Shown here one piece after another: positions 42,305 to 43,543 of a stretch of 43,543 bases of DNA. Source of the stretch: a virus. Its lineage: Duplodnaviria; Heunggongvirae; Uroviricota; Caudoviricetes. Under the pieces are notes generated by a model. It saw nothing but the letters and a program-made list of their open reading frames with translations. It did no database searches and had not been told where the DNA came from. The DNA lies in the IMG/VR virus record IMGVR_UViG_2541047719_000002, positions 1 to 43,543 of that record. One strand, written 5' to 3'. The number at the start of each line of letters is the position of its first letter. The stretch's first letter is position 1. The position numbers were made by a program, and so were the translations under genes.

Positions 42305-42412
42305 TAGAATGCCTCCGGGAAACCTCGGCCTTCAGACCGGGGAGGAAAGGAGGCGGTTTTCCGACTAACTGTACTTTGCATAATCACATTTTCCTCTTTA
42401 GTATGTGAACAC

Positions 42413-43543
42413 ATGAAACGCGCATATAAATACCGGTTTTACCCGACAACTGAGCAGGCTGAGCTTTTAGCTCAGACGTTTGGCTGTGTGCGCTTCGTCT
42501 ACAATTCCATCCTTCGTTGGCGTACCGATGCGTACTACGAGCGAAAAGAAAAGATCGGTTATCTACAGGCCAACGCTCGCCTTACGGCGCTCAAAAAAGA
42601 GCCTGAATACATATGGCTGAATGATGTTTCCTGCGTTCCCCTCCAGCAGTCGTTGCGCCACCAACAAGCCGCCTTTGCTAACTTCTTTGCCGGACGAGCT
42701 GCATATCCGGCTTTCAAAAGCAAACGGCACAAACAGGTGGCTGAGTTCACTGCCAGCGCGTTTAAACACCGTGACGGCGAGTTGTATATAGCAAAGAGCA
42801 AGTCGCCGCTGGATGTTCGCTGGAGTCGAGAATTACCATCTGCGCCGTCAACCGTTACCATTTCCAGAGATAGCGCTGGCAGGTACTTTGTTTCCTGCCT
42901 GTGTGAGTTTGAACCTGTATCAATGCCTGTTACCGCTAAAACGGTCGGCATTGATGTGGGCTTAAAAGATTTATTCGTCACCGATACCGGATTCAAAACC
43001 GACAATCCCCGCCACACCGCTAAATATGCGAAGCGATTAACGCTGCTACAGCGACGTTTAAGCAGGAAGCAAAAAGGCTCAAGAAACCGAATTAAAGCCC
43101 GCTTAAAGGTCGCCCGACTCCACGCGAAAATCGCCGATTGCCGGATGGACAATCTGCACAAGTTGTCCCGCAAACTGATTAACGAAAACCAAGTTGTTTG
43201 CGTCGAATCCCTCAAGGTGAAAAACATGATCCGCAACCCGAAGCTGTCTAAAGCAATAGCTGACGCAGGCTGGAGCGAACTTGTTCGCCAGCTCCAGTAC
43301 AAAGGCAAATGGGCCGGGCGGTCAGTGGTCGCCATTGACCAGTATTTACCGTCCTCAAAATGCTGTAGTTGCTGCGGTTTCACCATGCAAAAAATGCCTC
43401 TTAATGTTCGTAAATGGCACTGCCCTGAATGCGGCGCAGACCATGATCGCGACATTAACGCGGCACGTAATATTAAAGCTGCCGGGCTGGCAGTGTTAGC
43501 CCACGGAGAGCCTGTAAACCCTGAATCGCAGCACGCGGCTTAG
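42413..43543 (+). CDS. tnpB: TnpB (IS200/IS605-family OrfB, RuvC-like RNA-guided nuclease) of a TnpB-only IS element
   Basis: 376-aa ORF; N-terminus MKRAYKYRFYPT, RuvC-like motifs (GIDVGL…, …VCVESL…) and C-terminal zinc finger (CSCCG…CPECG); no tnpA in window. Confidence 0.85.
   Translation: MKRAYKYRFYPTTEQAELLAQTFGCVRFVYNSILRWRTDAYYERKEKIGYLQANARLTALKKEPEYIWLNDVSCVPLQQSLRHQQAAFANFFAGRAAYPAFKSKRHKQVAEFTASAFKHRDGELYIAKSKSPLDVRWSRELPSAPSTVTISRDSAGRYFVSCLCEFEPVSMPVTAKTVGIDVGLKDLFVTDTGFKTDNPRHTAKYAKRLTLLQRRLSRKQKGSRNRIKARLKVARLHAKIADCRMDNLHKLSRKLINENQVVCVESLKVKNMIRNPKLSKAIADAGWSELVRQLQYKGKWAGRSVVAIDQYLPSSKCCSCCGFTMQKMPLNVRKWHCPECGADHDRDINAARNIKAAGLAVLAHGEPVNPESQHAA

Follow-up and report, generated by a model that had tools for sequence, protein, structure and literature searches.

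The window (the whole 43,543-nt stretch of DNA that was analysed) closes with a tnpB gene on the plus strand, which runs from an ATG start codon to a TAG stop codon formed by the final three bases of the window (42413..43543 in the ORF list). Its 376-aa product carries the domain set that places a protein in the IS200/IS605 family, namely an N-terminal HTH-like domain, a RuvC-like domain and a zinc ribbon, as judged with Pfam and NCBIfam. The Pfam matches are HTH_OrfB_IS605 (PF12323, residues 1-45, 8.8e-22), OrfB_IS605 (PF01385, residues 172-274, 6.8e-26) and Cas12f1-like_TNB (PF07282, residues 287-354, 2.5e-23). With the NCBIfam guided_TnpB model (NF040570), the protein reaches 369.5 bits and clears the cutoff of 100; the strict IS200_TnpB model scores it at 400 bits, under its cutoff of 425, and we count this against the explanation favoured below. 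In a phmmer search of the PDB, ISDra2 TnpB (8bf8/8h1j) matches residues 3-369 end to end (E 9e-75), an unambiguous homology to a solved structure which made structure prediction unneeded. With positions counted in that alignment, the RuvC triad D181, E265 and D347 (codons 42953-42955, 43205-43207 and 43451-43453, + strand) corresponds to ISDra2 D191, E278 and D361, and the CxxC...CxxC cysteines C318, C321, C337 and C340 to those of the ISDra2 zinc finger. An earlier note on this DNA had described a full-length TnpB with RuvC-like and zinc-finger motifs, and that description holds, the gene being intact and its catalytic residues undisrupted; the allele in the window shows no defect at any catalytic, zinc-binding or scaffold position. 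The RefSeq label of the gene in hundreds of genomes is RNA-guided endonuclease InsQ/TnpB family protein. Identity as a type V CRISPR-Cas (Cas12f-like) effector was considered and rejected, given that the only neighbours are ybhB and bioA, without a CRISPR array or adaptation genes, and that the NCBIfam models for Cas12f and C2c8 fall far under their cutoffs. The best solved-structure match to the protein is PDB 9yyg, an 'AI-designed RNA-guided nuclease', marginally ahead of ISDra2 TnpB.

The gene on the other side is ybhB (41828..42304, - strand), which encodes a PEBP-family protein of 158 aa (ORF list; Pfam PBP 3.1e-42) and is annotated as such in matching genomes. Comparison of the filled locus with the empty loci of K-12 and ATCC 11775 defines an element of 1,291 bp, which starts at window position 42305, stops 52 bp beyond the end of the window and has tnpB as the sole ORF between its mapped ends; the end points are conserved in about 60 relatives. 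The empty site in both strains reads ...GAGTTTCAT|GAACCCTCC (in a longer reading, ...GAGTTTCAT|GAACCCTCCTTTCTTG...), and the filled site ...GAGTTTCAT|TAGAATGCCTCC...(element)...GGGGAGCCGTCAA|GAGCCCTCCTTTCTTG, so that no target duplication is present. Insertion took place 3' of the target or transposon-adjacent motif (TAM) TTCAT (42300..42304, + strand, from the empty-site comparison), between bioA and ybhB of the E. coli chromosome. As the reverse complement of this motif, ATGAA, is the ybhB start codon and the two bases after it, the element sits exactly between the ybhB ATG and its original Shine-Dalgarno sequence AAGGAGG, which now lies beside the right end. The start codons of ybhB and tnpB are divergent and 108 bp apart; carrier genomes have tnpB flanked by ybhB and bioA, with the convergent bioA stop codon 110 bp beyond the tnpB stop. 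The earlier note had the tnpB region abutting ybhB, and its start at 42305 is indeed the first base of the left end, one base after ybhB ends at 42304. It had also placed the right end, from which the guide RNA derives, beyond the window. This is correct: the recommended 3' extension put the terminus of the right end a mere 52 bp outside, with the refinement that half of the guide-RNA scaffold already lies inside.

Neither gene belongs to the adjacent prophage. The lambda att cores GCTTTTTTATACTAA occur at 1331-1345 and 41723-41737, and a single core lies between ybhC and ybhB in K-12; as tnpB lies outside the cores, it lies outside the prophage, with ybhB between them. The element is found in strains with a different prophage, or none, at att-lambda. 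The position immediately outside the prophage given in the earlier note is thus accurate, the element being unrelated to the prophage, and cargo status is ruled out by the att cores. The prophage itself (40.4 kb, window 1331-41737) ends with a 642-aa ORF (e.g. 39404-41332), where a matching genome has an annotated phage tailspike gene of 981 aa; from these differing ORF lengths, variation at this end of the prophage appears not to be tied to the tnpB element.

Element ends, predicted expression signals and the guide RNA

The left end (42305..42412, + strand), defined by the empty-site comparison and conserved in relatives, contains an outer stem with the arms GCCTCC (42311-42316) and GGAGGC (42349-42354), and an inner imperfect hairpin CCTCGGCC-TTCA-GACCGGGG (42323-42342), all on the plus strand. 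The inner hairpin resembles the right-end hairpin CCCCGTC-ATTCA-GGGCGGGG, and in relatives the two have a common consensus with a T.G position in both. The right end terminates in GTCAA. Terminal inverted repeats are absent, and the subterminal imperfect hairpins at both ends are the arrangement recognised by TnpA in the IS200/IS605 family. The E. coli copy departs from the consensus of its relatives in the first base of the left end (T not C), in one mismatch per end hairpin and in one scaffold G-C pair that is now G-U. Folded singly as DNA, the left end and right end behave the same as shuffled sequences (z -0.5 to -1.2, including the 3' RNA region).

Within the left end, CCTCC at 42312-42316 becomes GGAGG when read on the strand of ybhB and lies 7 nt upstream of the ybhB ATG (GGAGGCATTCTA-ATG), and translation of ybhB probably continues from this replacement ribosome-binding site. 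To be transcribed, ybhB would depend either on read-through that starts at bioA and crosses the element or on a weak promoter that faces outwards. A candidate for the latter is a weak sigma-70-like site from the promoter scan (TTCACA, 18 nt, TG-GATTAT; 42380..42409, - strand) directed towards ybhB, which is conserved in L007 and L008 and not in L010, L015 or L061; with promoter and terminator scans at chance level (promoters: 2 sites against 1.5 expected), we regard it as a weak lead. On the tnpB side, a -35/-10-like pair recognised by eye (TTGCAT 42376-42381, TAGTAT 42399-42404) ends 8 nt before the ATG, and the consensus promoter scan made no call there. The -10-like hexamer occurs at the same 8-nt distance in related copies, and this, together with the missing Shine-Dalgarno sequence of tnpB, suggests a leaderless mRNA.

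The 3' end of tnpB overlaps the scaffold of a putative guide RNA (omegaRNA). When the last 210 nt of 22 elements were aligned and their consensus fold computed with RNAalifold, six helices were obtained over alignment columns 97-209, equivalent to window position 43478 to 47 nt past the window end. About 66 nt, the 5' half, is therefore inside the window (43478..43543, + strand), including stem 1 (GCUGCC/GGCAGU, 43478-43494, + strand), and the remainder extends ~47 nt further; the final helix is also the right-end hairpin. Pairing is maintained in 96% of cells, a figure that drops to 38-51% if the partners are shifted by one to three columns. Compensatory changes occur in 19 of the 29 pairs, and none of 500 column shuffles scored as high. 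As a single-sequence RNA fold, the 3' region is not separable from shuffles, so the evidence for structure is covariation. A permissive Rfam scan of the whole element recovered no RNA family and only a chance snoRNA match (E 0.41), and synonymous-site variation along tnpB shows a modest dip over the scaffold that is uninformative on the 5' end of the guide RNA.

The guide itself would be the DNA 3' of the right end, GAGCCCTCCTTTCTTG..., which is the displaced ybhB 5'-UTR. It begins GAGCCC in 18 of 21 filled alleles, with GAG at positions 1-3. A divergent, frameshifted copy in strain 33E has a guide that reads GAACCC, the same as the empty site (window-equivalent 43596-43598). The target of the common guide type is TTCAT+GAGCCCTCCTTTCTTGTTTG, as opposed to TTCAT+GAACCC... 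for the empty-allele type; empty alleles read GAA, and a perfect empty-allele match to the GAG guide was found in 0 of 5,076 genomes. From these alleles we infer that the insertion began with a perfectly matching guide and then drifted without excision.

Relatives and the placement of their insertions

A one-genome-per-species scan yielded 79 loci, and a metagenome scan with the left-end motif added more. The right end finishes ...GGGGAGCAGTCAA (GTCAA) in almost every full-length relative, after which unrelated DNA follows; GCCAA occurs in a few relatives and GTCAG in some distant ones. Each end has an imperfect hairpin of 8 bp that includes a T.G position, and the two hairpins are alike. The closest subgroup, from Serratia, Citrobacter, Salmonella arizonae, Klebsiella and an apparently P1-like E. 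coli plasmid, has a left end that starts CAGAATGCCTCCGG and is preceded by (N)TCAT, as in every close relative examined, bar one truncated left-end remnant. That remnant (pKPN_CZ, IncF, 1501-1561) is ~61 bp from the left-end hairpin region, about 90% identical and without tnpB; several hundred plasmids of Klebsiella, most of them conjugative, carry such a remnant. In a second subgroup the left end is of another kind and follows TTTAT, and Endozoicomonas copies have a TTTAC/TTAT motif. Motifs of both kinds, TTCAT and TTTAT, are on record in other members of the family (Meers et al. preprint, 10.1101/2023.03.14.532601). One metagenome contig holds a 47-bp miniature in which the 5' half of the left end is fused to the 3' half of the right end (CAGAATGCCTCCGGGAAACCTCGGCCTTCAAGCCGGGGAGCAGTCA); this palindrome-associated, MITE-like unit lacks tnpB and is present twice, ~2 kb apart, after near-identical flanks and among small ORFs.

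At 15 of 21 distinct sites of the TCAT subgroup (the window and L005, L008-L011, L015, L017, L020, L086, L094, L109, L113, L125 and L162), a long divergent ORF (122-766 aa) has the CAT of the motif as its start codon. By way of a chance control, 18% of TCAT sites in flanking DNA open an ORF of at least 140 codons, and 5-7% are near the beginning of an ORF. Most of the divergent ORFs are real genes by Pfam, apparently full-length where the domain starts near the N-terminus, and include heptosyltransferase, tyrosine phosphatase, TrbI and TraD/TraG-like proteins; the annotated start codon is flush with the left end in three cases, ybhB, a plasmid NTP pyrophosphohydrolase and traX. The left end gives GGAGG, or in variants a similar purine-rich, Shine-Dalgarno-like run, 7-8 nt upstream of the ATG. 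The majority of sites are junctions between co-directional genes, and in L009, L017, L094 and L162 a long upstream ORF ends at a TGA that comes from the TCAA of the right end (TTGA on the host strand). A stop codon made by the right end in this way points to an original ATGA stop/start overlap, repaired by both ends of the element; in L162 (2781-2785), for example, an annotated DUF2726 coding sequence has its stop within the right end, and the left end adjoins the start of traX. The left end of the TTTAT subgroup has no Shine-Dalgarno-like run, and these elements tend to sit at or just after the stop codons of convergent genes: L012, L018 and L019 lie 0-7 nt from such a stop, and a 318-codon ORF in L019 terminates at the TGA of the right end.

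We tentatively propose, at somewhat short of even chances, that the TCAT subgroup has become adapted to insert at translation starts without phenotypic effect, sparing the reading frames of both operon genes. The design, if it is one, would comprise a target that is the complement of ATGA, a GGAGG placed 7 nt from the ATG, and a TTGA which restores an in-frame TGA at overlaps, and we hold its existence to be possible with the same reserve. It would be comparable in purpose to the stealth strategy of self-splicing IStrons. The alternative is that the start-codon pattern reflects pure survivorship of neutral insertions, the GGAGG being a by-product of the left-end stem. Our literature searches found no description of start-codon or Shine-Dalgarno insertion by IS605 or IS1341 elements. 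If adaptive, the geometry would be a novel means by which an insertion sequence keeps its cost to a minimum, and it suggests one reason for the persistence of tnpB-only elements in compact genomes.

Mobility, distribution and interpretation

The absence of tnpA from the window, as claimed in the earlier note, was confirmed by tblastn with two Pfam-type Y1 transposases, which returned nothing below E=1, and the element is likewise non-autonomous everywhere it has been seen. Around the Enterobacterales relatives, the ~3 kb of flanking DNA that could be examined on either side contained no tnpA. Y1 transposase genes occur in only three loci, all of them distant relatives: L080 and L059 (Endozoicomonadaceae), the latter with a tnpA that adjoins a different tnpB, and L040 (Salinivibrio). 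The sole cognate-TnpA candidate seen is that of L080 (2524-2937; Pfam Y1_Tnp 2.4e-41), 64 bp upstream of an N-terminally truncated tnpB relative, and the tnpB is found in many copies in Endozoicomonas genomes. The element thus lacks the internal tnpA of autonomous IS200/IS605 (IS605/IS608-type) elements; as the tnpA search covered the window and flanks, mobilisation in trans by a Y1 transposase elsewhere in carrier genomes may occur.

The ybhB-tnpB junction is present in 342 of 5,426 complete E. coli genomes (about 6%), including CFT073, ABU 83972, clone D i2, F11 and E2348/69, and is lacking in the other 94%. The copies occupy 346 chromosomal places, with a median of one per genome and always at the ybhB-bioA locus, and 333 of them are at least 99% identical. 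Relative to TnpB from other genera, dN/dS is 0.07-0.13, so that purifying selection across genera is strong. The 21 E. coli copies compared vary at 7 synonymous and 13 non-synonymous sites; nonsense alleles R152* and Q293* occur, and the complete genome of strain 33E has a 13-bp deletion in tnpB, which is annotated as frameshifted. Part of the metagenomic E. coli tnpB variants may be assembly errors. Separately, ~43 E. coli plasmids of roughly 97 kb bear an 81%-identical tnpB-only relative (pMB9880_2, 5003-6133) that directly adjoins the start codon of a gene in divergent orientation; these plasmids look P1-like by gene content (lysozyme, ssb and a large N6-methylase).

Taken together, we consider it highly probable that the locus holds a non-autonomous, tnpB-only (IS1341-type) IS200/IS605 element, stranded at ybhB, which is probably functional and persists as a near-neutral passenger. 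TnpB and its guide RNA would form an RNA-guided, TAM-dependent nuclease. As shown for other family members, such a nuclease may cut the TTCAT-flanked empty bioA-ybhB alleles and so favour retention of the element; in the biology of the family, once TnpA has excised the element, a cut in the empty allele would bring the element back by recombination. If no cognate TnpA is available, then neither excision nor transposition would take place, and the element would be inherited vertically, drifting almost neutrally. Since no TnpA partner is evident in E. coli, the system would have nothing to do, and in most carriers the guide appears to have gained a seed mismatch to empty alleles, GAG vs GAA.

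The near-neutral variation within E. coli, with its nonsense and frameshift alleles, also accommodates an inert relic, in which the ORF is intact merely because the insertion is young, and TnpB and guide RNA are unexpressed or broken. The mismatch of the guide seed to extant empty alleles and the small defects in the end hairpins lean the same way, and the near-identity of the 333 copies indicates a time too short for decay to be informative. Against this, the allele in the window is faultless at catalytic, zinc-binding and scaffold positions, and purifying selection on the family is strong across genera; we judge a relic unlikely, if with a real share of the probability. Less probable still, by a wide margin, is domestication of TnpB for a host function, whether RNA-guided repression or control of ybhB or bioA, or the exclusion of incoming empty-allele DNA. 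The fixed, single-copy location in one lineage and the intimate position at the ybhB translation start, within the bioA-ybhB transcription unit, would suit such a role, but the RuvC triad is intact, unlike that of the nuclease-dead TldR repressors, null alleles circulate in E. coli, and most E. coli genomes do without the element. Moreover, the guide matches only the DNA beside the right end of the element itself, where there is no TAM.

An autonomous insertion sequence, or prophage cargo, with its transposase merely beyond the window, could be entertained from the window by itself, which stops at the tnpB stop codon and hides the downstream DNA. The complete genomes leave it scarcely credible: the right end and the bioA stop follow within 52 and 110 bp of tnpB, respectively, and the element lies outside the att cores and accompanies other prophages or none. 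The stranded tnpB-only element remains our preferred reading, and both of its ends, which the earlier note had named as a point on which its claim could fail, were located by comparison with empty sites and about 60 relatives.

Comparison with known systems

The stranded tnpB-only element is ordinary in kind and already auto-annotated in RefSeq. Our literature searches on the protein accession, on TnpB with ybhB or CFT073, and on the TTCAT motif found the element undescribed. What makes it valuable is that a natural case has been mapped in full: its ends, target motif and guide are defined, as are the empty allele and the population frequency of the element; as the carriers CFT073, ABU 83972 and E2348/69 are well studied, a native-host test of a transposase-less TnpB would be easy.

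One of the closest known systems is the ISDra2 TnpB/omegaRNA system of Deinococcus radiodurans (PDB 8bf8, 8h1j, 8exa), which has the same domain arrangement, catalytic triad and zinc finger, a guide RNA that likewise overlaps the 3' end of tnpB and the right end, and a 5-nt motif of the form TTNAT 5' of the left end, the third base being G there (TTGAT) and C here (TTCAT). ISDra2 differs in that it has its own tnpA and is mobile, whereas the E. coli element has none; the E. coli TnpB is also shorter by about 30 C-terminal residues, and its guide RNA belongs to no Rfam family. With TldR proteins the E. coli TnpB shares descent from TnpB, a solitary state and a fixed position beside host or phage genes; TldRs, however, have lost RuvC residues, and identity with them was rejected because all three residues and the zinc finger are kept here. 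In Geobacillus, TnpB or IscB of ISGst elements cuts the excision donor joint and thereby promotes retention (Meers et al. 2023, 10.1101/2023.03.14.532601). The ISGst elements resemble the present one in their TTCAT and TTTAT motifs, but those genomes encode an active TnpA which mobilises non-autonomous copies, and no such partner was found for the E. coli element. With IS1341-type (tnpB-only) elements it has in common tnpB as the sole ORF and ends that carry hairpins, as well as the absence of both terminal inverted repeats and target duplication; no difference in kind separates the two, and the distinguishing feature of the E. coli element is its placement at a start codon with a left end that bears a Shine-Dalgarno sequence, which we did not find described for the type.
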